Source: Patescibacteria group bacterium (GTDB taxonomy: Bacteria; Patescibacteriota; Minisyncoccia; Minisyncoccales; Staskawiczbacteraceae). Taken from it: a stretch of 45,023 nt of DNA. Of this stretch, positions 18,951 through 41,296 are shown one piece after another; the first letter of the stretch is position 1; the number at the start of each line of letters is the position of its first letter. The stretch lies in NCBI GenBank assembly GCA_022703425.1, contig JAKLDQ010000004.1:1-45023 (forward strand), read 5' to 3'. A program made the position numbers and the translations under genes. The notes below the pieces were generated by a model. It searched no databases. It was not told where the DNA came from and was given only the letters and a program-made list of their open reading frames with translations.

Positions 18951-19337
18951 ATGAAAAAAATATTCTGGGTATTTTTTCTTTTATTAATCGGCGTAGCTGC
19001 GGCAGAACATGCTTATGCAATCCCTTGCGGAGTTGACGGGATTGTTCCCTGCGGACAGTATCCAAACTGTCCCTGCGATATTACCGACGTATTTATAATA
19101 CTGACAAATATTTATTTCTTTGTCGTCGCATGGATTGCAACTCCCCTTGCCGTAATAGCTATTGTAATCGGAGCTGTAATAATGATGATATCTGCCGGAA
19201 ATCCCCAGGCATTGGGCACGGGAAAAAAAGTTTTATACGCCGGAATTATTGGCCTTGTCCTAGTGCTCTGTTCGTGGCTCATCATTGATTTTGTTTTAAG
19301 CGCACTGGGATATCGGGGATCCTGGAATAGACTATAA
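18951..19337 (+). CDS. VirB2/TrbC-like (T4SS-type) pilin
   Basis: Signal peptide ending AYA, short 4-Cys segment, hydrophobic hairpin with ISAGNP...GKKVL..GIIGL.LVL.SWLII. Confidence 0.8.
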   Translation: MKKIFWVFFLLLIGVAAAEHAYAIPCGVDGIVPCGQYPNCPCDITDVFIILTNIYFFVVAWIATPLAVIAIVIGAVIMMISAGNPQALGTGKKVLYAGIIGLVLVLCSWLIIDFVLSALGYRGSWNRL

Positions 19338-19340
19338 GTT

Positions 19341-19453
19341 TTTCCCTCCGTTGTTTGTGCCTCGCCCTTGTAGCTCAATTGGCAGAGCAGTTGCCTCTTA
19401 AGCAATTGGTTCCGAGTTCGAGTCTCGGCAGGGGCACAAACAACGGAGGGAAA
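19341..19453. repeat. 23-bp inverted repeat enclosing tRNA-Lys
   Basis: 19341-19363 TTTCCCTCCGTTGTTTGTGCCTC versus 19431-19453 GGGGCACAAACAACGGAGGGAAA; 21 contiguous perfect pairs, and the single mismatch is G:U in RNA. Confidence 0.95.
19364..19436 (+). tRNA. tRNA-Lys(CUU)
   Basis: Acceptor GCCCTTG/CAGGGGC, anticodon arm GTTGC-CTCTTAA-GCAAT, T-loop TTCGAGT. Confidence 0.93.
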
Positions 19454-19456
19454 CCC

Positions 19457-19485
19457 TTTACAAAAGTATTAAAATAGAGTATACT
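19457..19485 (+). promoter_or_regulatory. Sigma70-type promoter of rpsO
   Basis: TTTACA, 17-bp spacer, TATACT. Confidence 0.65.
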
Positions 19486-19514
19486 ATACATAAAATCACA
19501 AATTTATATAAGTT

Positions 19515-19784
19515 ATGGCATTAGACACAAAAGAGAAGGAAAAAATTATCAAGGATTTGAATATCCATGAAAAAGATACAGGATCTGCCGATGTTCAGAT
19601 CGGTTTGCTCTCAAAAGAAATAGACAGGCTGGTTTCGCATCTTAAAAAACACACCAAAGATACTCATTCCAGGAGAGGACTAATAAAAATGGTCATTAAA
19701 AGAAAAAAGCTTCTGGCCTATCTTAAAAAGGAGGATGAGAAAAGATACTCTGCAGTCATTAAAAAAATAGGACTAAAGAAATAA
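19515..19784 (+). CDS. rpsO: 30S ribosomal protein S15
   Basis: HEKDTGSADVQIGLL, HLKKHTKDTHSRRGLIKMV. Confidence 0.98.
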   Translation: MALDTKEKEKIIKDLNIHEKDTGSADVQIGLLSKEIDRLVSHLKKHTKDTHSRRGLIKMVIKRKKLLAYLKKEDEKRYSAVIKKIGLKK

Positions 19785-19814
19785 ATTCAATAGCCGCTCC
19801 AAAAGTGCGGTTAT

Positions 19815-20330
19815 TTGATTAATCAGATGTCGCCAAAACCAAAAGAACAACGAGTTGAAGTATTGATTGATGTGCAGAATCTTTACCACTCTGCCAAAAA
19901 TCTCTACCATGCGAAAGTTAATTTCCAGGAAGTTTTAAAGCAGGCAGTTGCAGGAAGAAAATTTATCCGCGCGTTCGGATATGTCGTCAGGACAAAAACC
20001 GGTGAAGAGGCGCCATTTTTTGATGCTCTCTCAAAAATCGGCATTGAGACAAGAGTCAGAGATCTGCAGGAATTTTACGGAGGAGCGAAAAAAGCTGACT
20101 GGGATGTTGGGATTGTAATCGACGCAATAAGAACTTCGCCCGCACTGGATGTTATAGTTTTGGTTTCAGGAGACGGCGATTTTATAGCTTTGGTTGAGTA
20201 CCTGAAAAATCAGGGCAAAAGAGTGGAGGTTATGGCATTTGGAAGAACGACATCTTCAAAACTAAAGGAGGTCGCTGATGAATTTATCGACATGGATGAA
20301 AATACAAAAACATTTTTATTAAAACAATAA
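19815..20330 (+). CDS. NYN domain (LabA/DUF88, PIN-like) putative ribonuclease
   Basis: VLIDVQN, KKADWDVGIVIDA and VLVSGDGDF acidic catalytic motifs. Confidence 0.9.
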   Translation: MINQMSPKPKEQRVEVLIDVQNLYHSAKNLYHAKVNFQEVLKQAVAGRKFIRAFGYVVRTKTGEEAPFFDALSKIGIETRVRDLQEFYGGAKKADWDVGIVIDAIRTSPALDVIVLVSGDGDFIALVEYLKNQGKRVEVMAFGRTTSSKLKEVADEFIDMDENTKTFLLKQ

Positions 20331-20336
20331 TTAACA

Positions 20337-20427
20337 GCGGAAACATCGATATACTAATTTACCTTATTAAATAAAATTACGGACAAAATAAATTATTTAA
20401 CAGGGCAAGTTCGTATATCGGTTCCGC
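20337..20427 (+). promoter_or_regulatory. Long irregular stem-loop in the pnp 5' leader
   Basis: GCGGAA(ACAT)CGATATAC pairs with GTATATCG-G-TTCCGC; inner TTAAATAA/TTATTTAA helix; ends 10 nt before the ATG. Confidence 0.6.
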
Positions 20428-20437
20428 AAAAAAATAA

Positions 20438-22573
20438 ATGATAAAAGATACTTTTAAGTTAGAAGTTGGCGGAAAGACGATAACAATTAAGACTACAAAT
20501 TGGGCCGAACAAGCTTCCGGCTCGTGTTTGGTTCAGTGCGGAGAGACAGAGGTTCTAGCAAACGTAACAATGTCTCCAAAAAATGTTGATGGACAGGACT
20601 TTTTTCCTTTGACTGTTGAATATGAGGAAAAGTTTTATGCCGCCGGCAAGATTTACGGTTCAAGATTTATTAGAAGAGAGTCAAGGCCGACCGACGAAGC
20701 AATATTGAGCGGAAGAATGATTGATCGTGCGCTGAGGCCGAGATTTCCCAAAGATTTTAAAAGAGAGGTTCAGATAATTGTAACCTGCCTTTCATGGGAT
20801 GGAGAAAACGACCCAGATATTTTGGGTTTGATTGCCGCTTCCTTTGCGCTCTCAATTTCTCAAATTCCTTTCAACGGACCTGTGGCTGCGGCAAGGATAG
20901 GCAGGATAAATGGAGAATGGATTATAAATCCGACATATAAACAGAGAATAGAATCTGAAATGGATTTTACTTTGGCTGCAATTGAAACAAAAGAGGAAGG
21001 ATTTCTGATAAACATGATCGAAATGGGCGGAAAAGAAGTTTTGGAAAAGGATGTTCTCGAAGCCACAAAAATTGCAGAAAAAGAACTCACAAAAATTATT
21101 GATTTTCAGAGAAAATCCGCACAAAAAATCGGCAAAGAAAAAATTTCCGTCGAGTCGGCTGTTGAAAAAGATATAGAAAAAGAAATCAAAAGATTTTTGG
21201 GTGACAGGTTGGAAAAAGCCGTCAATGAAGCCGAACCGAAAGAGAAGAGCCTTGGGAAAATCGATGAGCTAAGAGAAGAGACGGCAAAACATATTGAAGA
21301 AAAATTTCCGGGAAAAGGGAGGCAGGTTTTACCGTATTTTGAAGACGAAACAGAAAAAATAATTACAAAAAATGCAATTGAGAAAGGTAAAAGGCCTGAC
21401 GGCAGGAACGTTGATGAAATCAGAAAAATTTCAGCCGAGGTTTCGGTGCTCCCAAGAACACACGGATCATCCCTCTTTTACAGAGGTCTTACACACGTTC
21501 TTTCAATCCTTACTTTAGGAGGCCCTGCAGACCAGCAAATATTGGAGGGGATGGAAATTGTGGGAAAGAAGAGGTTTTTGCACCATTATAATTTTCCGCC
21601 TTATTCATCAGGAGAAACAGCTCCGATAAGAGGCCCGAAAAGAAGAGAAATCGGGCACGGAAATCTGGCTGAGAAAGCTTTGTTGCCCGTCATCCCTGAT
21701 GTGGATAAATTTCCATATACAATAAGAATTGTTTCTGAAGTTGTTTCAAGCAACGGATCCACTTCAATGGCTTCAACCTGCGCAGCATGTCTTGCATTAA
21801 TGGATGCAGGAGTGCCGATAAAAGAACCCGTTGCAGGAATTTCAATCGGATTAATGAAAGACGATGAAACCAAAAAATATAAACTGCTGACAGATATACA
21901 GGGGCCGGAAGACCATTATGGAGATATGGACTTTAAGGTTGCCGGGACAAGGAACGGAATTACAGCAATACAGATGGATACAAAAATAGACGGACTAAGC
22001 ATTGGCATAATAGAAGAGGCGCTGGAAAAAGCAAAGAGTGCAAGAATGCAAATTCTTGATATAATAAAGAAAACAATTCCGGAACCCAGAAAAAATTTGT
22101 CTCCTTACGCTCCAAAAATCTTCACCCTGCAGATTAATCCTTCCAAAATCGGAGAAGTTGTAGGGCCAAAAGGAAGCGTTATAAACAAGATAATTGAGGA
22201 ATTTGGAGTAACAATAGATATTGAGGACACCGGGTTTGTGTTTATAACCGGTGTTGATGAAAAAGGGGTAGAAGGCGCAGTAAACAAAATCAGAAGCATT
22301 GTCAAAGAAGTTCAGATTGGGGAAACATTTCAGGGAACCGTCAGAAAAATAATGGACTTTGGCGCATTTGTTGATATTCTCCCCGGACAGTCCGGGCTGG
22401 TACACATTTCAAACTTTGTTCCATATAAAATAAACAAAGTTGAAGACGTTGTAAAAGTAGGCGATATAATCCCCGTGAAAGTCGTCTCCATAGACGAACT
22501 TGGCAGAATAAATCTTTCTGCATCTGAAGCAGGATTTAAGCCCCGAAAGAAACCGTTTTTCGGAAAAAAATAA
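20438..22573 (+). CDS. pnp: Polyribonucleotide nucleotidyltransferase (PNPase)
   Basis: DFFPLTVEYEE, RREIGHG, SSNGSTSMAS, GDMDFKVAGT, KH and S1 domains. Confidence 0.98.
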   Translation: MIKDTFKLEVGGKTITIKTTNWAEQASGSCLVQCGETEVLANVTMSPKNVDGQDFFPLTVEYEEKFYAAGKIYGSRFIRRESRPTDEAILSGRMIDRALRPRFPKDFKREVQIIVTCLSWDGENDPDILGLIAASFALSISQIPFNGPVAAARIGRINGEWIINPTYKQRIESEMDFTLAAIETKEEGFLINMIEMGGKEVLEKDVLEATKIAEKELTKIIDFQRKSAQKIGKEKISVESAVEKDIEKEIKRFLGDRLEKAVNEAEPKEKSLGKIDELREETAKHIEEKFPGKGRQVLPYFEDETEKIITKNAIEKGKRPDGRNVDEIRKISAEVSVLPRTHGSSLFYRGLTHVLSILTLGGPADQQILEGMEIVGKKRFLHHYNFPPYSSGETAPIRGPKRREIGHGNLAEKALLPVIPDVDKFPYTIRIVSEVVSSNGSTSMASTCAACLALMDAGVPIKEPVAGISIGLMKDDETKKYKLLTDIQGPEDHYGDMDFKVAGTRNGITAIQMDTKIDGLSIGIIEEALEKAKSARMQILDIIKKTIPEPRKNLSPYAPKIFTLQINPSKIGEVVGPKGSVINKIIEEFGVTIDIEDTGFVFITGVDEKGVEGAVNKIRSIVKEVQIGETFQGTVRKIMDFGAFVDILPGQSGLVHISNFVPYKINKVEDVVKVGDIIPVKVVSIDELGRINLSASEAGFKPRKKPFFGKK

Positions 22574-28230: not shown

Positions 28231-28260
28231 TTTCTCCACATATTTGACTTTTTTATATTG

Positions 28261-28269
28261 TGGTATAAT
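28261..28269 (+). promoter_or_regulatory. Extended -10 promoter of the VirB6-like gene
   Basis: TGGTATAAT (perfect TGnTATAAT) 18 bp before ATG 28288. Confidence 0.6.
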
Positions 28270-28287
28270 TATGTAACATTTTTATTT

Positions 28288-30462
28288 ATGCTTGGAAAAA
28301 TATCACAATTTTCAGACGAGCTTTTCATTAAGTTGTACATTTTAAAAAGCTCTGTTTTAGGTTCCAGAATAAAAAAGAAGGAAAGAGGGGCGCTTGTTAC
28401 CGGCCTTGTGATTGGGGGAGCCATTCTTGCAAGCACACTTATAGGAGGATTATGGATGTCATCGAAAGTTGAAACGGCAAAAGAAGGTTTTTTCGCCGAT
28501 CTAACAAGGGGAATCGGATTATTTCTTCTTGCCGTAGCCGACACGGTTTTTCAGGCCGCCGCAACTCTATTATCCTATGTAATCGGACCTTCTTTTACAG
28601 ACCAGGCAATTACAAAAAATCCTGTTTATTTTAGAGTGTGGGGCACAGTAAGGGATCTGTCCAACATGTTGATTGTATTAAGTTTTGTGGTTATTGGAAT
28701 TGCCACAACTTTAAGAGTGCGCGAATACGAGGCAAAAAAACTTCTTGCTCCATTAATAATCCTCGCTCTTCTAATTAACTTCTCAAGCCTGTTCTGTGGT
28801 TTAATAATTGATGCGTCCAACATAGCAATGCGCGATCTGCTCGGAGGCGGTTCTGCAAGCGGATCAATCACCGCAATCAGAGAAGCAATAACCACGTACT
28901 CGAAACTCGAGATGACCGGTAACAATATTAGCCCAAGCACGGGAACCAGCGAACCGCTTTCAAATCCGGGGGAATTTTTGGCAAAATGCGCAGGATTAGC
29001 CCTTTTTCTTTTGATAGCAGCTTACACATTCGGCGTAATGGCAATATTACTCCTTGCAAGATATGCTGTTTTAGCTGTTTTGTTTATACTTTCACCTTTG
29101 GCATTTTTCTGTTTTGTATTCCCGCCCACAAAAAAGGTTTGGAATACATGGTGGGAGCATTTTATTAAATGGTCTTTTATGGGAGTGATTTCCGCTTTCT
29201 TTATTTCGCTTGCCGTGAGCGTGCTTGCTGCCGCAAGTGCGACCGGCACTCCTTTAGACTTTAACACATTCTGCGTTGTATTTATCTTTTTAATTGTCGG
29301 CTACAAGATGACCAAATCAGGAAGCGCCATCGGAGCGACCGCCGTGTTAGGTCTTGCAGCCACCGCCGGAAGCTACGCTCTTGGCGGAGTAGGAGTTGCA
29401 GCAAGAGCTACTGGCTTAAAAAACCTGGCAAAGAGCGCAGGAGAGGGAGCACAAAATACGCTGTCATCGGCGGGAGAAAAAATCGGATTGGTTGCTCCTG
29501 GAACTACCGCAGCAAATAGAAAGAGTCGGCTTGATGAATCAAAGAAGCGCCTTGCAAGCATTGAAAGCAACGAAGAATTGGCAAAGATTGCAGAACAGAG
29601 GCCAGTTACAAGACAAAAAGCTTTGGATAAAGCTGCTGCAGCAGAGATGCTTGCAGAAAGAAAAGCATTTGGGAAGGTTTCTGCAGACAAGAGAGAAGCC
29701 GTTGCTGCGCACGCTTCGGCATACGGGGTTTCAAAAGATGTGTTTACAAAAGAAAGACCAGAGACATTTACAGATACATCTCGGCAGGAAGCTATAAACC
29801 ATGTACGAACGCAAAGGGCACAAAACATGGTACAGAACCTTGGGATGTCCCCCGAAACCGCTTTTGCAGGAGTATCAACATACCCTCCAAACGACAATGA
29901 GATTCGCCGAGCACAGAGCGATTTATCACAAAGAAAAACCACTGACGCGAGGCTTGGCCTTGCGCCGGTAACAGAGAAGGATGTAAAGAACAAACTCATA
30001 GAGGATAGGAGCAGATCATTAATTGAAAATGCACGGAGATCAGGAAGGACAATGACAACGCAAGAAGCGTTGAAATTAAGCAGTGATTACAAGCCGACCA
30101 AAGCAGAAATGATGTTCGGAAGAGAAGAACTTTCAAATGATAGAAGAGCAAACGCAGTAAGAAAATTGTCTGCCGCTAAACAGGCAGAACTTTCGGCTGA
30201 AACACTCGATGATATTCACGTTTTTGGAGCAATCGACTTTACAAACGCAAGGGTAGTTGAAGAATTTAGAAAGGCGCCCCCGAAAACACAGGAAAGAATT
30301 AGAAGTTGGGCCCATGCGCCGTCTACACCCGATCCAAACAGCCAATTTGACAGGCTAAACAGGACAATTGCTGAACTGAATGCAACAGGAAGACCGGAGG
30401 ATGCAGCGAGAGCAACAAGACTTATGAATAATCAAATTTATATTCATACTAACTTCCCATAA
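28288..30462 (+). CDS. TrbL/VirB6-like multi-TM T4SS component with a long C-terminal soluble tail
   Basis: WGTVRDLSNML...GIATTLR, ALLINFS..FCGLIID.SN, R.AVL..LFILSPLAFFC.VFP.TKK.W..WW motifs; ATG 28288 chosen because the ORF-track TTG at 28258 overlaps the promoter. Confidence 0.7.
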   Translation: MLGKISQFSDELFIKLYILKSSVLGSRIKKKERGALVTGLVIGGAILASTLIGGLWMSSKVETAKEGFFADLTRGIGLFLLAVADTVFQAAATLLSYVIGPSFTDQAITKNPVYFRVWGTVRDLSNMLIVLSFVVIGIATTLRVREYEAKKLLAPLIILALLINFSSLFCGLIIDASNIAMRDLLGGGSASGSITAIREAITTYSKLEMTGNNISPSTGTSEPLSNPGEFLAKCAGLALFLLIAAYTFGVMAILLLARYAVLAVLFILSPLAFFCFVFPPTKKVWNTWWEHFIKWSFMGVISAFFISLAVSVLAAASATGTPLDFNTFCVVFIFLIVGYKMTKSGSAIGATAVLGLAATAGSYALGGVGVAARATGLKNLAKSAGEGAQNTLSSAGEKIGLVAPGTTAANRKSRLDESKKRLASIESNEELAKIAEQRPVTRQKALDKAAAAEMLAERKAFGKVSADKREAVAAHASAYGVSKDVFTKERPETFTDTSRQEAINHVRTQRAQNMVQNLGMSPETAFAGVSTYPPNDNEIRRAQSDLSQRKTTDARLGLAPVTEKDVKNKLIEDRSRSLIENARRSGRTMTTQEALKLSSDYKPTKAEMMFGREELSNDRRANAVRKLSAAKQAELSAETLDDIHVFGAIDFTNARVVEEFRKAPPKTQERIRSWAHAPSTPDPNSQFDRLNRTIAELNATGRPEDAARATRLMNNQIYIHTNFP

Positions 30463-30978: not shown

Positions 30979-32127
30979 CTAGTCCTCGAAAGGAGGCAAT
31001 CCTTGTTTTATCCTCTCGTGGGCTTTTTTCATCTCCTCCGGAGTACGGTTTTCGGCAGGGTTTTTCCTTTCCTTCTTTGATTCACTTTTAGCAGGTGTAG
31101 ATCCGCCTTCGCGAAGCCTTTCGCTTAGAAGGGCTATTATATCCATGCCTCCTTGCGCACCCGAGAAGTAATACTGACGCACCGCGCCGGCATTTAGCCC
31201 CATGCTCCGAACCACGAAGTCCTGATTTAACTTAATCAGGCTCTCGTACTTTTTCAGCGCGGCGTCGGGATCTTTTTTAAACTCCCGCTTGATAGTCTTC
31301 AGACTTGTACCCGTCTGATCGGCAATCATTTCCATGACAGCCCCGCTTGTGCTTCCCACAAGTTCGGAACGTCGGCGCTTTGCCTCCTGCTCGCCCCGGA
31401 AAGTTTTTGTTGTGTCTTCCCGGTATTTGGCATCTGGACTGATGTCAACACATTCCGTCGCCTCGATTGTAAGGCCATGCATGCCATTGAGCGCTTTGAA
31501 AATACCCTCTCCTCTGAGAGTTTCCTCTACAAGCTTGTCGAGCCTGATGTCCGGCTTTGCAATAATATTCTCATAGGTGTGTTGACCGACGTGGTGTCGG
31601 ATATAGGGTTTGGTTCTGTCGCGAAACGAAGTAAACCAGTCTTGCGTGTCCAGCCAGGCTTTTCTTAGATTCGATGTCCATGCCGTAAAGCTCCACAGAG
31701 AGTGCACTGGCACCCCGTTAACGTCCTCGGCATCGTCTGATTTGATGCCATAAGTATAGAACCGGATCAAAAAGCGATAGAGATTGAAGTCTTCTCTGTC
31801 TTCGAGTTCTTTTTGGCCGGGAGCCGTTTTTGTCCAGTGAAACTCGCGTTTCACAAAGAGCCGAAAATACGGCCACAAACCAACCCATCTCCATCCGCCG
31901 AACGGATGCCATTCATATCCTCGGACAATATCTCCTTCGGGTTCGTTTACGCGGTGATCTTGTTTACAGATCAGCGTCTTGTAATAAGCGCCGTTCTTTA
32001 GAGCGATTGCACCTGTTCCTTCTTCGAGAAAAATCCCGCAGATAAAGATCAGGTAATAAAGGATAAGCACGGGAAGAATTCCCGTATATGTCAGAAACCA
32101 GAGAAAGCTCAGAAGCCATGCCAACAT
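30979..32127 (-). CDS. Membrane-anchored protein with a possible divergent SPFH/Band-7 domain
   Basis: N-terminal TM; AEDVNGVPV...PYIRHHVG...GLTIEATECVDISPD followed by a helical EQEAKRRR segment resembles SPFH plus coiled coil; SD AAGGAG 7 nt upstream; visibly higher GC. Confidence 0.55.
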   Translation of the reverse strand: MLAWLLSFLWFLTYTGILPVLILYYLIFICGIFLEEGTGAIALKNGAYYKTLICKQDHRVNEPEGDIVRGYEWHPFGGWRWVGLWPYFRLFVKREFHWTKTAPGQKELEDREDFNLYRFLIRFYTYGIKSDDAEDVNGVPVHSLWSFTAWTSNLRKAWLDTQDWFTSFRDRTKPYIRHHVGQHTYENIIAKPDIRLDKLVEETLRGEGIFKALNGMHGLTIEATECVDISPDAKYREDTTKTFRGEQEAKRRRSELVGSTSGAVMEMIADQTGTSLKTIKREFKKDPDAALKKYESLIKLNQDFVVRSMGLNAGAVRQYYFSGAQGGMDIIALLSERLREGGSTPAKSESKKERKNPAENRTPEEMKKAHERIKQGLPPFED

Positions 32128-32745: not shown

Positions 32746-33414
32746 ATGGCAACAGAATCGGCAACACAAGCTTTTCTGGAAATTAAGGATATACGCGAAG
32801 GAATGTTACTGCTGAAGAATAATTCTATCAGGGGCGTTTTGATGGTCTCGTCTTTAAATTTTGCTTTAAAATCAGATGAAGAACAGACTGCAATAATTTA
32901 CGCGTTTCAAAGTTTTTTAAATTCGCTGGATTTTTCGTGCCAGATTGTAATCCAGTCACGGAATATAAACATAACTCCTTATCTGGACACAATCAAAGAC
33001 CTTGAGGAAAGACAAACAAACGAGCTGATGAAACAGCAAACGATCGCATACAGGGAATTTATAAAAAATCTCGTTGTGGGAGATATGGTAATGACAAAAA
33101 ACTTTTACGTTGTTGTTCCTTACACATTAATGGAGGTTTTGGGAATGAAAGCGACTGCCGCAAAACAGTTCAGTTTTTTAGGGCAGGGAAATAATCAAAA
33201 TTCCGGCCAGGAGATGAAAGATGACGAGTTTGAAAGATGCAAAACACAACTTTGGCAGAGGATGGAGTTTTTGGCAATGGGATTAAAAAGATGCGGGCTG
33301 GAAGCTGTTCCGCTGACCACCCCCGAGTTAATAGAATTGTTCTGGGCAATCCACCACCCAGATCAGGCGGAAATCGGATACTATCCGGAAATTTTGCCTG
33401 AATTATTAAAATAA
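32746..33414 (+). CDS. TraC-like T4SS accessory protein (resembles the VirB4 N-terminal region)
   Basis: SSLNFALKSDEEQ.AII..FQSFLNSLDF..QI.IQSR and KNFYVVVPY motifs; lies between prgI and the ATPase. Confidence 0.7.
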   Translation: MATESATQAFLEIKDIREGMLLLKNNSIRGVLMVSSLNFALKSDEEQTAIIYAFQSFLNSLDFSCQIVIQSRNINITPYLDTIKDLEERQTNELMKQQTIAYREFIKNLVVGDMVMTKNFYVVVPYTLMEVLGMKATAAKQFSFLGQGNNQNSGQEMKDDEFERCKTQLWQRMEFLAMGLKRCGLEAVPLTTPELIELFWAIHHPDQAEIGYYPEILPELLK

Positions 33415-38200: not shown

Positions 38201-38360
38201 GTTGAATGAAAACCGGACAGTTTTGGACACCGCAACAGGAATAGAATACATATCAAGATACTGCTACGGACAAGTAGCCGGAAAATATTTTAATGCACAA
38301 AACCAGCCATTGGCAGACAATTGGTTCTGCTGTAATACCTGGGAAAAAGAAAATGAATAA
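35253..38360 (+). CDS. VirB2/TrbC-type pilin domain fused to a giant cysteine-rich extracellular region
   Basis: Signal peptide, LEASYP, pilin hairpin (GGVYYLVSYG...AKDWI.SGILGL.I...SYLILYTINP), then about 900 aa holding about 70 Cys by manual count. Confidence 0.85.
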   Translation: MTPIQKKLLFSFLFLPALFLPLIAFGLEASYPPIFGMAITNASSLPQYFKYFFNAGILLAGFAAVIVVAFGGVYYLVSYGRGKFTSEAKDWIKSGILGLLILVCSYLILYTINPDLVILKMDGLFSISLNAGLSDDDSFGAKKIFFDEIPIGTLTENVLTRTVDCYDFDANGDPIPGVEVKTDSGQKVRAPTLRNHDRTDCILKLTEAANKKAEKIEKLSQEVSKLMRECNCSNNCTSTCSCPKPTSKYCTGNSNSDKALIKKCEDACKKTQCKGPSETGSSCPADIYKKIEHGPIQLEVAGDPWTETEEGKCPPPKMKDFAGLDEFRCPNPKNNSRCNDISTLVGRKHKIGGDEVLIIDTETFKKELNLIQQLTFYYEELKRISDQMKKDSEDLERAELMLSNCKFADSYIDFLKTFERSNKQYVLALTQPIFTDSVTNEPVNISNYCKGFSYSNSTCFTTCQKMCPDDSTQVTSCYKKCQCDPEDENCLKVQWMCVQDCYNSRPCKSENFDGNFSNCIIACKEGCKKDCEKIYPECHPEREKCLARCADDSRCLLYNNNESRCVFDPKSLVTCSTNSSQNNMKDCIDNSYTCKYGSNQNAGYLECTNGWANCKTYRGELYNTEFSASYLYKNPFTQRCPNAYEVCAYSDPNSESGVNPFINRTCEDTYPEVYKCPPSSDCPDCPCGVSEISQMNIKYTDEIGECAGGMPKIQCTDGTFACYCPEEAALPLTIIYPMDKYDFTDVSPKCDQYAYNDDPLTFYCQQSWWEKSEGSVDAPVGDKVHCSEMREIPVGKTIDDTELWASETLKSIDNYINKIKGLINYTKDIGDRINNKYKPYCSCASVCDSGDKICLSKCKFECKETTETTPDGTVTKKKTSSCVLDACKNNSCQQMIDLLLGGGGGEDAVCKSKKEGVGEFVRYMKQYQLDFKKTLTLKRSDILKELTYSRESVNKCSVAQGEYGKDEARMYSCERVKDEIMPPLNENRTVLDTATGIEYISRYCYGQVAGKYFNAQNQPLADNWFCCNTWEKENE

Positions 38361-39660
38361 AATAAAAAAATTTCGTTCGTCATTATTTTTAATTGGCCTG
38401 TTTTTTGCAGAATCCGCCCAGGCCTTTGAAGCCCGATATCCTTTTATTCCCGGCGTTGGAACGCTAAATCCAGACAGCGGAATCGGAGAATATATAAGTT
38501 ATTTTTTTGGAATTTTAATATACATCGGCGGGGCAATAGCTCTGGTTTCTTTTGCAATCGGCGGTGCACAATATATTATGTCCGGAGACAGTCCGGAAAA
38601 TTCTGGAAATGCAAAAGACCGGATGAAAGGTTCTATCCTTGGGCTGGTCCTGACGGTATCCTCATTTATCCTCATCAAAACAATCAACCCTGCAATGGCA
38701 ACACCGACAATTACCCCTCTGCCAAGCACAGGAGGTGTCTTTTTTACAAATGGATCTGTACTTAAACCGGCTCCCCTCAGGGAAAATAATATTGCCTCAA
38801 TACCTGTCGGTTACCATAATCTTGTTTACAAGTGTAATGAAAACGGTCCCGCTCTGCTTGTTTGGATATATCCAGACGTGGGACTGTCTGGCTTCGGCTC
38901 CGACGGGATAGACGGCGTTCAAATATTCAGAGTCGCTTGCGGGCAATCTCTTGCTTTGGGCGGATCGGGCTCTTACAAAATGGCCTTCGAAACTCCTGGA
39001 ATTTATTACTGTCTGGGAAATTGCCAAGGCCAATTCTGCACGGGATTTATGTCAGAGGCGAACCTGACAGACCAAAAAGAAATCCCAGAGGTTTTTAAAA
39101 ACAAAATCAGATCAATAAGAATAGTAAACGGATTCAGCAATGGAATAGCGCTAGGAGCAATTTTTCACCAGGACAAAGATTTTACCGGAACCTGCAGTAA
39201 CATGATCCCTCAAGATGCCCGGTTCAACTCACGCGAAAGCTACTGTATAGACGTGCTTCCTGAAACAACGGGCTCTGTAAATATTTTTAAATGGAATTAT
39301 AAATTGAATTCGGGAGACGGCGTTACTTTTTACAGCACGCCTCACGGATATAGAACAGGGTCTTATGCAGGATACAGATCTGTTGGCAATGATTTAATCA
39401 ATCCTGTTTATGTGATTAATCCTTCTGCAATTATTTTTGACTATACAAACGTTGATGTCCCTCCGGAAGTAAAACGCCAGTGTGTTTCTTTTGGTGATTG
39501 CCCCGGGTCTGTTGAAGTAAAAGGAAAATATCTGGTTGTTGTATCTGCCGCGGGCGGATATTGTGAGGTTTTTAACCAAAATATCTCGAACATGAAGGGC
39601 ACGAAGGTTGGCGCTCAGGGAAGGCAATTGGGCGATATTTATATTATTCCCGTCAGATAA
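38353..39660 (+). CDS. VirB2/TrbC-type pilin fused to beta-rich (beta/gamma-crystallin-like) domains
   Basis: Signal peptide ending AQA, FEARYP, pilin hairpin ending IKTINP; ATG 38353 overlaps the upstream stop and is preferred to 38293. Confidence 0.8.
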   Translation: MNKIKKFRSSLFLIGLFFAESAQAFEARYPFIPGVGTLNPDSGIGEYISYFFGILIYIGGAIALVSFAIGGAQYIMSGDSPENSGNAKDRMKGSILGLVLTVSSFILIKTINPAMATPTITPLPSTGGVFFTNGSVLKPAPLRENNIASIPVGYHNLVYKCNENGPALLVWIYPDVGLSGFGSDGIDGVQIFRVACGQSLALGGSGSYKMAFETPGIYYCLGNCQGQFCTGFMSEANLTDQKEIPEVFKNKIRSIRIVNGFSNGIALGAIFHQDKDFTGTCSNMIPQDARFNSRESYCIDVLPETTGSVNIFKWNYKLNSGDGVTFYSTPHGYRTGSYAGYRSVGNDLINPVYVINPSAIIFDYTNVDVPPEVKRQCVSFGDCPGSVEVKGKYLVVVSAAGGYCEVFNQNISNMKGTKVGAQGRQLGDIYIIPVR

Positions 39661-40790
39661 TGGAAAACAGGCAATTATTATTTTTTTTAATTGCACTCTT
39701 TCTGCTTTTACCAAACAGCGCCTTTTTATTTTCCGCCGGACTTGAAATAAATTATCCTACACTTTCAAGCGGTTCCCATATAGATGCTCTTACCAACCTG
39801 CCGGAATATATGAGATATGTCTTTGATTTTGCGATGTTTGTGGGATTTTTTTCTGTTTTTTTATCGCTTGTCTGGGCAGGTGTTCTTTGGATTATGTCTC
39901 CTGCAAAAGCAAGTTTTTTAGCAGAAGCAAAAGACAGGATTATGGGTGCTTTTTCGGGTCTGCTTTTGCTTGTTCTGCTTTATCTGATTGTCGTTACAAT
40001 CAATCCTCAACTTGCCTTTTTTAACCGTACGGGAATTAATCAGGACGAAATAGGCCGAGACGACAGCAGAGCACCGGGTGTTTATTTTTTTGTCGGCAGA
40101 GGCTGCCCCTTCCGAGCAGAAAATCCTTATGTAAAAATGACCAGCATTCCGGATTTTGGAGAAATAAACAACCGAATAAACTCCGTTTATATCCAGCAAA
40201 AAAATATCTCTTTTATTTCGGTTTTATTTGACAGTGAGAACTTTTACGGCAGATGCCAATATATAGATCCAAACAGGGGATGCAGCAATGTTGCCCCTTT
40301 TGCAGGTTCTGCGTCCATATATAATTTTAATTACGGATACAGCGGATTAGGAGTAATATTTTATAGAAAAGCTTTTTTTGACGATGAGGGCGGATATTAT
40401 ATGGTAAAAGACAATCAGATAAAGGGAAAAATTTTAATTTTAGATTTGAGGACGATGGATTACAGAGATCCGAGGTCTGGCGAATGCACAGTGCCGGAAA
40501 AAGAAAGGGACTGCACATCATGGGACAACCAGGGAAATTGTTTGACGAGAAAATGCCCTTCCGTATACCGTAATTTGACTTCGATAGAATTGAAAGGCAA
40601 TTATTTTGTATTGCTTGTTTACTATGATGAAAAAAATGATACTCCCGCAGGTCCCTGGTCATTTTGCCAGGCGTTCCCCACAAAAGATGACGTTAACAGA
40701 GATGGTCCAGTCCAGATAAAATGGGAAAATGTAAACAATGTTGGGATGACTCCCAATTTTGCGTTAATTATCCCCGTAACTCAAAAATAA
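39660..40790 (+). CDS. VirB2/TrbC-type pilin fused to beta/gamma-crystallin-like domains; paralogue of the preceding gene
   Basis: LEINYP, AKDRIMGAFSGLLL...VTINP; TAATG overlap with the upstream gene. Confidence 0.8.
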   Translation: MENRQLLFFLIALFLLLPNSAFLFSAGLEINYPTLSSGSHIDALTNLPEYMRYVFDFAMFVGFFSVFLSLVWAGVLWIMSPAKASFLAEAKDRIMGAFSGLLLLVLLYLIVVTINPQLAFFNRTGINQDEIGRDDSRAPGVYFFVGRGCPFRAENPYVKMTSIPDFGEINNRINSVYIQQKNISFISVLFDSENFYGRCQYIDPNRGCSNVAPFAGSASIYNFNYGYSGLGVIFYRKAFFDDEGGYYMVKDNQIKGKILILDLRTMDYRDPRSGECTVPEKERDCTSWDNQGNCLTRKCPSVYRNLTSIELKGNYFVLLVYYDEKNDTPAGPWSFCQAFPTKDDVNRDGPVQIKWENVNNVGMTPNFALIIPVTQK

Positions 40791-40823
40791 AACAAAACCG
40801 CTTAAGGAGCGGTTTTGTTTTAT
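40787..40823. terminator. Bidirectional terminator separating the pilin operon from the jag operon
   Basis: 16-bp stem ATAAAACAAAACCGCT-TAAGG-AGCGGTTTTGTTTTAT overlapping both stop codons. Confidence 0.85.
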
Positions 40824-41296
40824 TTGGGTTTTATAACAATATGGCGGTAAGCCCCCATCCCTGAGCTTTCAGTGGAAATATCCGTTCTGCCAGCAAGTTC
40901 TGAATGTATAACTCGTCTTTCGTAGGCAGACATAGGCGAGAGAACTCTCTCTTCTCTTGTGAGAGAAACCTCGTCTGCAAGGTCTTTTGCCAGATCTTTT
41001 AAATACTCAACTTTTTTCTTTTTGTATTCGTTTATATCCAGGCTTAAATGGAATATTTTCTGGATTTTTTTATTTAAAATCGTTCTCATCAGCCTCTGAA
41101 TTTCAGAAAGAGTCTGCCCCTTTTCCCCTATTAATATCTGCGGCTCTTCAAAAGTCGCAGAAATCACCACAATGTCTCCTTCTGGAGATTCTCCCTTCTC
41201 ATGTTCAACCTCAATTCTTTTTGGAGGCAAAGTCATCAACTGAAAAAATTCTTCAGCAGAATTTTTTATTTTTTTAATGTCGTTTTGGTCTATCAT
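40820..41296 (-). CDS. jag: Jag/KhpB-like RNA-binding protein (KH plus R3H), lacking the Jag N-terminal domain
   Basis: ILIGEKGQTL..IQ, LDINEYK, PMSAYERRVIH (R3H); downstream of yidC. Confidence 0.88.
   Translation of the reverse strand: MIDQNDIKKIKNSAEEFFQLMTLPPKRIEVEHEKGESPEGDIVVISATFEEPQILIGEKGQTLSEIQRLMRTILNKKIQKIFHLSLDINEYKKKKVEYLKDLAKDLADEVSLTREERVLSPMSAYERRVIHSELAGRTDISTESSGMGAYRHIVIKPK

Follow-up and report, generated by a model that had tools for sequence, protein, structure and literature searches.

Members of the Patescibacteria carry a relaxase-free, MPF-FATA-like type IV secretion system (T4SS), which is often located beside dnaA and is accompanied by arrays of 2-11 divergent VirB2-like pilin genes (Quinonero-Coronel et al. 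2025, PMC12102498). Such a pilin array is essential in Southlakia epibionticum (Wang et al. 2023, PMC10633639). The function of the system is unknown (PMC12857230, PMC10633639, PMC11665869), no pilus has been demonstrated for any Patescibacteria T4SS, which is credited with the 'potential to elaborate conjugative pili' (PMC12857230), and a survey of these systems detected no adhesins (PMC12102498). We describe here two tandem genes, P1 and P2, whose products combine a VirB2-like pilin part with predicted beta/gamma-crystallin-type domains. They lie in a stretch of 45,023 nucleotides (the window; positions 1 to 45,023 of the forward strand of contig JAKLDQ010000004.1, assembly GCA_022703425.1) from a Patescibacteria group bacterium of the Staskawiczbacteraceae.

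Like the Patescibacteria VirB2/TrbC pilins (PF18895), P1 and P2 possess a signal peptide and a two-helix hairpin and occur as tandem, divergent paralogs (~25-29% identity); as in the described pilin arrays, they are encoded directly after virB4 and beside dnaA, in an MPF-FATA-like locus that has PrgI and VirB6 but no relaxase. Unlike canonical VirB2 pilins of ~70-130 residues, they carry a folded cargo of 250-320 residues, predicted to be extracellular, and the pilin-array papers describe neither cargo domains nor a crystallin fold. With the vertebrate gamma-crystallins (2jdf, 1a5d, 9g3w) this cargo shares paired double-Greek-key domains over ~240 columns, at template modelling (TM) scores of 0.58-0.65 (crystallin-normalised), and its Ca2+ motifs are degenerate, as are the non-functional sites of gamma-crystallins. 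It differs from these proteins in its low identity (8-12%), its predicted extracellular, membrane-tethered and Cys-paired state, a large Cys-rich loop in the second domain, and a first hairpin whose corner aromatic is replaced by a Cys. The best sequence-profile matches, flavollin (3HZB) and Protein S (1PRR/1NPS), the latter likewise a two-domain protein, share with P1 and P2 a secreted or surface bacterial context, as do clostrillin, hahellin and nitrollin. Most of these microbial beta/gamma-crystallins bind Ca2+ via N/D-N/D-x-x-S/T-S, a motif that is not conserved in P1 and P2, and a T4SS pilin hairpin is attached to none of them. Searches for crystallin together with Patescibacteria or pilin returned irrelevant papers only, and no description of the fusion was found in the searchable literature; a first-pass annotation of the window, made from the letters alone, had likewise known of none. 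Patescibacteria pilin arrays and microbial beta/gamma-crystallins are each known, and their fusion is apparently undescribed.

Fold models and pilin parts of P1 and P2

AlphaFold2 models of full-length P1 and P2, built with family alignments and compared with the PDB by Foldseek, show C-terminal regions that are predicted to form double Greek keys of the beta/gamma-crystallin type, with two domains packed against each other as in a gamma-crystallin. The P1-like relatives of these proteins are termed family 1 and the P2-like relatives family 2, and the parts of both proteins are as follows.

38353..39660 (coding to 39657), + strand: P1 gene (P0001), 435 residues, pilin hairpin and three beta domains; from the open reading frame (ORF) list, its translation and homolog N-termini
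38353..38424, + strand: P1 signal peptide, residues 1-24 (...ESAQA/FEARYP); from the sequence and a modelled helix at 2-19, cleavage site predicted
38425..38700, + strand: P1 VirB2-like two-helix hairpin, residues 25-116, ending in TINP; PF18895 match at residues 43-109 (E 1.2e-9), helices 44-76 and 81-111
38734..38991, + strand: P1 D1, residues 128-213, extra seven-strand beta domain of family 1 only, with co-varying Cys161/Cys196
38992..39300, + strand: P1 D2, residues 214-316, first predicted crystallin-fold domain, homologous to P2 DA, with Foldseek matches to gamma-crystallins
39301..39657, + strand: P1 D3, residues 317-435, second predicted crystallin-fold domain, homologous to P2 DB; holds the hypervariable Cys-rich loop site (residues 365-384)
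39660..40790 (coding to 40787), + strand: P2 gene (P0002), 376 residues; from the ORF list and its translation
39738..40016, + strand: P2 VirB2-like two-helix hairpin, residues 27-119, helices 47-78 and 84-114; weak PF18895 match (E 0.066)
40071..40337, + strand: P2 DA, residues 138-226, predicted crystallin-fold domain with F190-x4-F195-x-G197 and the degenerate motif N170-N-R-I-N-S175
40338..40787, + strand: P2 DB, residues 227-376, second predicted crystallin-fold domain with an inserted Cys-rich loop (residues 269-300)

For P2, modelled at a mean predicted local distance difference test score (pLDDT) of 82.9 with residues 140-340 mostly >90, two-domain gamma-crystallins made up 9 of the top 10 Foldseek matches (1a5d at E 6.5e-4, probability 1.00, ~244 aligned columns; 2jdf at TM 0.65, normalised to the target). 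Next came flavollin, nitrollin, hahellin, Protein S, spherulin 3a, clostrillin, the Ciona crystallin and Neurospora APP, and the single-domain microbial crystallins superposed at a root-mean-square deviation of 2.6-4 Å. The P1 model (mean pLDDT 89.0) had human gamma-D and gamma-S crystallins as its top three matches (9g3w_X at E 8e-4, probability 1.00, TM 0.61, 236 columns). Sequence profiles point in the same direction for family 2: a profile of 16 sequences matched only three PDB sequences, all of them crystallins, and with one of 77 sequences flavollin reached E 3e-4, followed by Protein S (0.018) and, lower down, by gamma-C and beta-B2 crystallins. The crystallin-like Greek keys claimed by the first-pass annotation are supported by the double Greek-key models and, for family 2, by a crystallin profile signal.

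All strings from which it had argued are present in the translations: KNKIRSIRIV...GAIFHQDKDFTGTCSNM in P1 (residues 249-285) and NNRINSVYI...SVLFDSENFYGRCQYI in P2 (170-202), the second-copy strings PGSVEVKGKYLVVV and RNLTSIELKGNYFVLL, and GSVNIFKWNY..GDGVTFY in P1 with its counterpart GSASIYNFNY..GLGVIFY in P2. It had described the second copies as partial; the repeat stands, but each protein has two crystallin-type domains, to which P1 adds an N-terminal beta domain. The crystallin signature combines a Y/F/W-x4-Y/F-x-G hairpin with one conserved Ser per Greek key; it is found in the second Greek key of P2 DA (F190...F195-x-G197), where G197 is kept in 80 of the 81 family-2 representatives and S175 in 65; S217/S219 are conserved as well. 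In Greek key 1 of P2 a near-invariant Cys149 replaces the i+5 aromatic, and in family 1 H272 occupies the first signature position. An alignment of DA with DB by hhalign (58% probability, E 1e-4) is consistent with an internal repeat. The same comparison of P1 D1 with the crystallin domains detected no relation (5% probability); the strand spacing of D1 resembles that of a Greek-key domain, and its kinship to the other domains is not established.

Three results weigh against the crystallin assignment. Full-length P1 and P2 have no match to Pfam Crystall (PF00030) at E<=1; among the relatives this family reaches a best E of 0.018, in 2 of 26 members and short of the gathering threshold; and family-1 profiles of 11 and 73 sequences gave no crystallin match among PDB sequences. 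Of the checks suggested at the outset, AlphaFold gave the crystallin fold and Pfam Crystall stayed below threshold. Single-sequence searches of P1 and P2 against PDB sequences returned nothing relevant. Family 1 is assigned to the crystallins because of its predicted fold and its homology to family 2. A legume lectin match of the family-1 profiles (E 0.33-0.65) is at chance level and is not read as lectin homology.

The N-terminal part identifies both proteins as members of the pilin family. In P1 and P2 alike, the signal peptide precedes two hydrophobic helices that form a hairpin around a short, conserved basic AKDR loop; then come a low-confidence, disordered linker (pLDDT <50 at residues 118-133) and the all-beta C-terminal region; in the homolog alignment a conserved ALExxYP follows the P1 signal peptide. 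P1 lies above the gathering score of the Pfam family T4SS_pilin (PF18895; 38.6 bits, cutoff 26.6). P2 alone is sub-threshold at 13.7 bits, and 23 of 26 family members match. When the divergence of pilin and cargo was compared by per-region identity, the hairpin was conserved best (mean identity to the representatives 48-49%), followed by the domains (36-43%) and the linker (12%). In the VirB2 topology both termini lie outside and the basic loop inside; by analogy, the C-terminal cargo of P1 and P2 would be extracellular.

Within the genome, the crystallin part is carried by P1 and P2 only. A tandem of four small 'naked' VirB2-like pilin genes (97, 105, 106 and 105 residues) lies on the minus strand of contig C31 (~19433-20841). 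It follows closely downstream of a gyrA-like gene, a long way from the T4SS locus. A fifth small pilin, a 128-residue ORF between tRNA genes of the window (18951-19337, + strand), matches the hairpin part of the family profile (E 2.1e-5). If a filament exists, these small naked pilins are plausible bulk subunits of it.

Calcium motifs, cysteines and the variable loop

In microbial beta/gamma-crystallins, paired N/D-N/D-x-x-S/T-S motifs form two Ca2+ sites per domain, and a site needs both motifs; substitution of a basic residue at position 5 serves to disable it. In family 2 (n = 81) the first motif reads K/N-N-K/R-I/V-x-S (position 5: N30, K16, R13, T4 and others) and the second F-A-S/A-S-A-S. 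Family 1 (n = 91) has x-G-K/N-I-x-S (position 5: K59, R9) as its first motif and a second of the x-A-S-A-A-D type, with Ala at position 5 and without the N/D pair. Across both families position 5 is mostly Lys, Arg, Asn or Ala; the N-N-R-I-N-S of the window's P2 comes nearest to the canonical motif, but lacks a partner. Judged by these alignments, the canonical motif is degenerate and not conserved in either family. Because the paired motifs are not conserved, Ca2+-dependent stabilisation is unlikely, and we reject on these statistics the proposal of the first-pass annotation that the domains are stabilised by Ca2+. The clostrillin T82R entry 3sny appears among the Foldseek matches of P2.

Cysteines occur in even numbers, 10 in P1 and 8 in P2, all of them in the cargo part. 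Scored across the representatives, several of them come and go in pairs:

P2 C276/C299: both present in 54, neither in 27, one only in 0
P2 C149/C208: both present in 78, neither in 2, one only in 1
P1 C161/C196: both present in 74, neither in 17, one only in 0
P1 C220/C224: both present in 33, neither in 56, one only in 2
P1 C377/C383: both present in 72, neither in 18, one only in 1

Disulfides in an extracellular protein would be expected to produce such joint presence and absence. We infer from the alignments that the cargo is stabilised by disulfides instead of by canonical Ca2+ sites. By elimination, the invariant pair C281-C404 of P1, which corresponds to C199-C336 of P2, probably forms a bond between the two crystallin domains. 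The loop of the last domain is hypervariable in family 1, where it ranges from 12 to 200 residues and from 0 to 21 Cys (20 residues in the P1 of the window); in family 2 it spans 25 to 73 residues. In some family-1 orthologs, such as P0012, this loop is enlarged by very long Cys-rich insertions of up to 200 residues and 21 Cys; a second insertion site follows the next strand.

Paralogy, relatives and the conserved locus

P1 and P2 align by BLASTP both in the hairpin segment (29% identity, E 1e-8) and in the C-terminal segment (25% identity over 204 columns, E 6e-8), and hhalign pairs P1 D2 (214-316) with P2 DA (136-226) at 99.4% and P1 D3 (317-435) with P2 DB (227-376) at 99.3%. These alignments place their paralogy beyond chance and, together with the PF18895 match, uphold the earlier description of tandem paralogous pilins. 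Word-seeded searches with the C-terminal regions retrieved 10 relatives of P1 and 15 of P2, whose named sources are Patescibacteria and which public records name just 'pilin' or 'hypothetical protein'; P1-like and P2-like members sometimes share one contig. When 1.84 billion cluster representatives were searched with a profile, 669 clusters reached E<=1e-30, and the best 150 of these, together with the earlier relatives, split cleanly into the 91 P1-like and 81 P2-like representatives on which the motif, Cys, identity and loop statistics are based.

Scanning one genome per species with a 16-sequence family-2 alignment, we found 49 related species loci, mostly labelled Candidatus Staskawiczbacteria or Patescibacteria, whose gene order was read by tblastn with the window proteins. 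Nearly all 49 keep the order PrgI, TraC-N, VirB4, P3, P1, P2, convergent jag and yidC, and dnaA. The P1/P2 duplication therefore predates this lineage, with both copies at fixed positions: the duplication and divergence read from the letters hold, and the event is ancient. Several related loci (L007, L031, L033, L034 and L044) have 1-2 kb between the P1-like match and P2, or a match to the P1 hairpin only; both patterns suggest that cargo genes have been added or exchanged here.

Among 301 evenly sampled genomes of the class, full-length matches were limited to the family of the window. Matches that extend into the first crystallin domain came from a few further genomes in the order or class, and elsewhere the matches are confined to the hairpin, inside ORFs of 124-1252 residues. 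By this sample, cargo-bearing pilins are general in the class, and the twin-crystallin cargo is lineage-restricted.

The source genome measures 720 kb and is 96.5% complete; the window adjoins dnaA, dnaN, rnpA, yidC and a jag-like gene. P1 and P2 are encoded together with T4SS core genes of the VirB3, VirB4 and VirB6 types:

28258..30462, + strand: TrbL/VirB6-like membrane protein, 734 residues
32336..32743, + strand: PrgI/VirB3-like protein, T4SS core, upstream of P3
32746..33414, + strand: TraC-N-like protein, 222 residues, T4SS core, upstream of P3
33414..35243, + strand: VirB4-like ATPase, 609 residues (TraG P-loop domain, E 1.8e-28), T4SS core, directly upstream of P3
35253..38360, + strand: P3 (P0003), 1035 residues, Cys-rich, a third cargo-bearing pilin of the same operon and the same conserved synteny
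40785..40825, no strand assigned: terminator-like hairpin with a 19-bp stem, directly after P2 and before the convergent jag-like gene; operon end

The start of P1 is placed at 38353 and not at the longer ORF start 38293, in agreement with homolog N-termini. Its ATG overlaps the stop of the upstream 1035-residue P3 gene by 8 nucleotides (ATGAATAA), and the ATG of P2 overlaps the stop of P1 by 1 nucleotide (TAATG). These overlapping starts and stops, with the terminator after P2, mark P3, P1 and P2 as the translationally coupled end of an operon. P3 itself is extremely Cys-rich, obtains only a weak pilin match from Pfam, and has syntenic copies that are only 30-40% identical.

The VirB4 function appears to be split between the 222-residue TraC-N-like ORF and the 609-residue ATPase, whose stop and start overlap at 33414; since this two-part arrangement recurs in related loci, it is not an assembly artefact. 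Midway through the T4SS locus, the opposite strand carries a 382-residue ORF without Pfam match (30979-32127, minus strand), which lies in the window's most GC-rich kilobase (31001-32000, GC 0.495 vs ~0.39 elsewhere).

Candidate role at the cell surface

P1 and P2 are probably T4SS-linked surface display or contact subunits, anchored by a membrane hairpin and equipped with disulfide-stabilised twin crystallins. They would be two ancient paralogous subunits of a chromosomal, oriC-proximal T4SS-like apparatus, held at a fixed position in its locus. The hairpin may anchor the crystallin modules in the membrane, or may enter a filament of naked pilins sparsely or at its tip. The modules themselves could serve as rigid display or contact elements towards a host cell, their specificity probably residing in the variable Cys-rich loop of the last domain. 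P3, P1 and P2 would together touch the host envelope as display subunits that are minor, located at a tip or simply anchored in the membrane. By analogy with the VirB5 tip protein and the PrgB adhesin, to which P1 and P2 have no sequence or fold relation, they could be the part of a mating or contact apparatus that is displayed at the cell surface; the adhesin or lectin function initially suggested for the crystallin domains is putative. DdCAD-1, a cell adhesion molecule of crystallin fold, would be a precedent for adhesion.

The geometry of F and T pili speaks against part of this proposal, as a domain of 27-35 kDa on every subunit of a VirB2-type filament seems sterically hard to accommodate. 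'Pilin' may therefore be the wrong name for what is simply a membrane anchor, and by comparison with these pili a homopolymer that bears such a domain on each subunit is unlikely. More tentatively, and with perhaps one chance in several, P3, P1 and P2 could form a heteromeric tip or contact complex on a naked-pilin filament, in which the stapled twin-crystallins recognise the host and the loop sets host specificity. If true, this complex would supply the 'adhesin' so far missing from the essential Patescibacteria T4SS.

A purely architectural role is a rival reading. Here, disulfide-locked pairs of P1 and P2 would build with P3 a rigid stalk or collar that spans the envelope, without a ligand role and with a hairpin that never polymerises. 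The fixed order of P3, P1 and P2, in one copy each and directly after VirB4 in nearly all 49 loci, their translational coupling, and a hairpin that is more conserved than the cargo would suit such a structure, and crystallin folds are noted for stability and tight packing. A last-domain loop that varies from 12 to 200 residues and from 0 to 21 Cys suggests instead a diversifying surface interaction, and cargo types differ widely between the families of the class; we regard the architectural role as unlikely. Still more doubtful are Ca2+-stabilised, Ca2+-dependent adhesin or lectin domains in the manner of Protein S. The fold, the homology to Ca2+-binding flavollin, Protein S, clostrillin and hahellin, and the near-canonical N-N-R-I-N-S of P2 would favour them, but the motifs are degenerate in the representatives of both families, with an often basic position 5 and no paired motif.

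Very improbable is a crystallin part that is cleaved at the linker and released as an effector or toxin acting on the host, an analogy based on the killer-toxin and protease-inhibitor members WmKT, SKLP and SMPI of the beta/gamma-crystallin-like superfamily: the disordered, poorly conserved linker between hairpin and cargo would permit it and effector delivery by the T4SS has been speculated on (PMC11665869), but such toxin and inhibitor entries are absent from the top 50 Foldseek matches, which lens and microbial crystallins lead, no conserved cleavage motif was seen at the linker, and Sec secretion with a membrane hairpin is not the normal recruitment of a T4SS substrate.

For surface-displayed twin crystallins as contact subunits, the wider meaning lies in the Patescibacteria T4SS itself, which is widespread, adjoins the replication origin and is essential in the single species tested. 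As a candidate for the part of this system that contacts the host, the ectodomains of P1 and P2 would be concrete and open to expression, and 'pilin' annotations in these genomes appear to hide varied displayed cargo domains. For crystallin evolution, P1 and P2 may represent a bacterial two-domain, gamma-crystallin-like arrangement in which the Ca2+ motif has been lost and cysteines are used instead.

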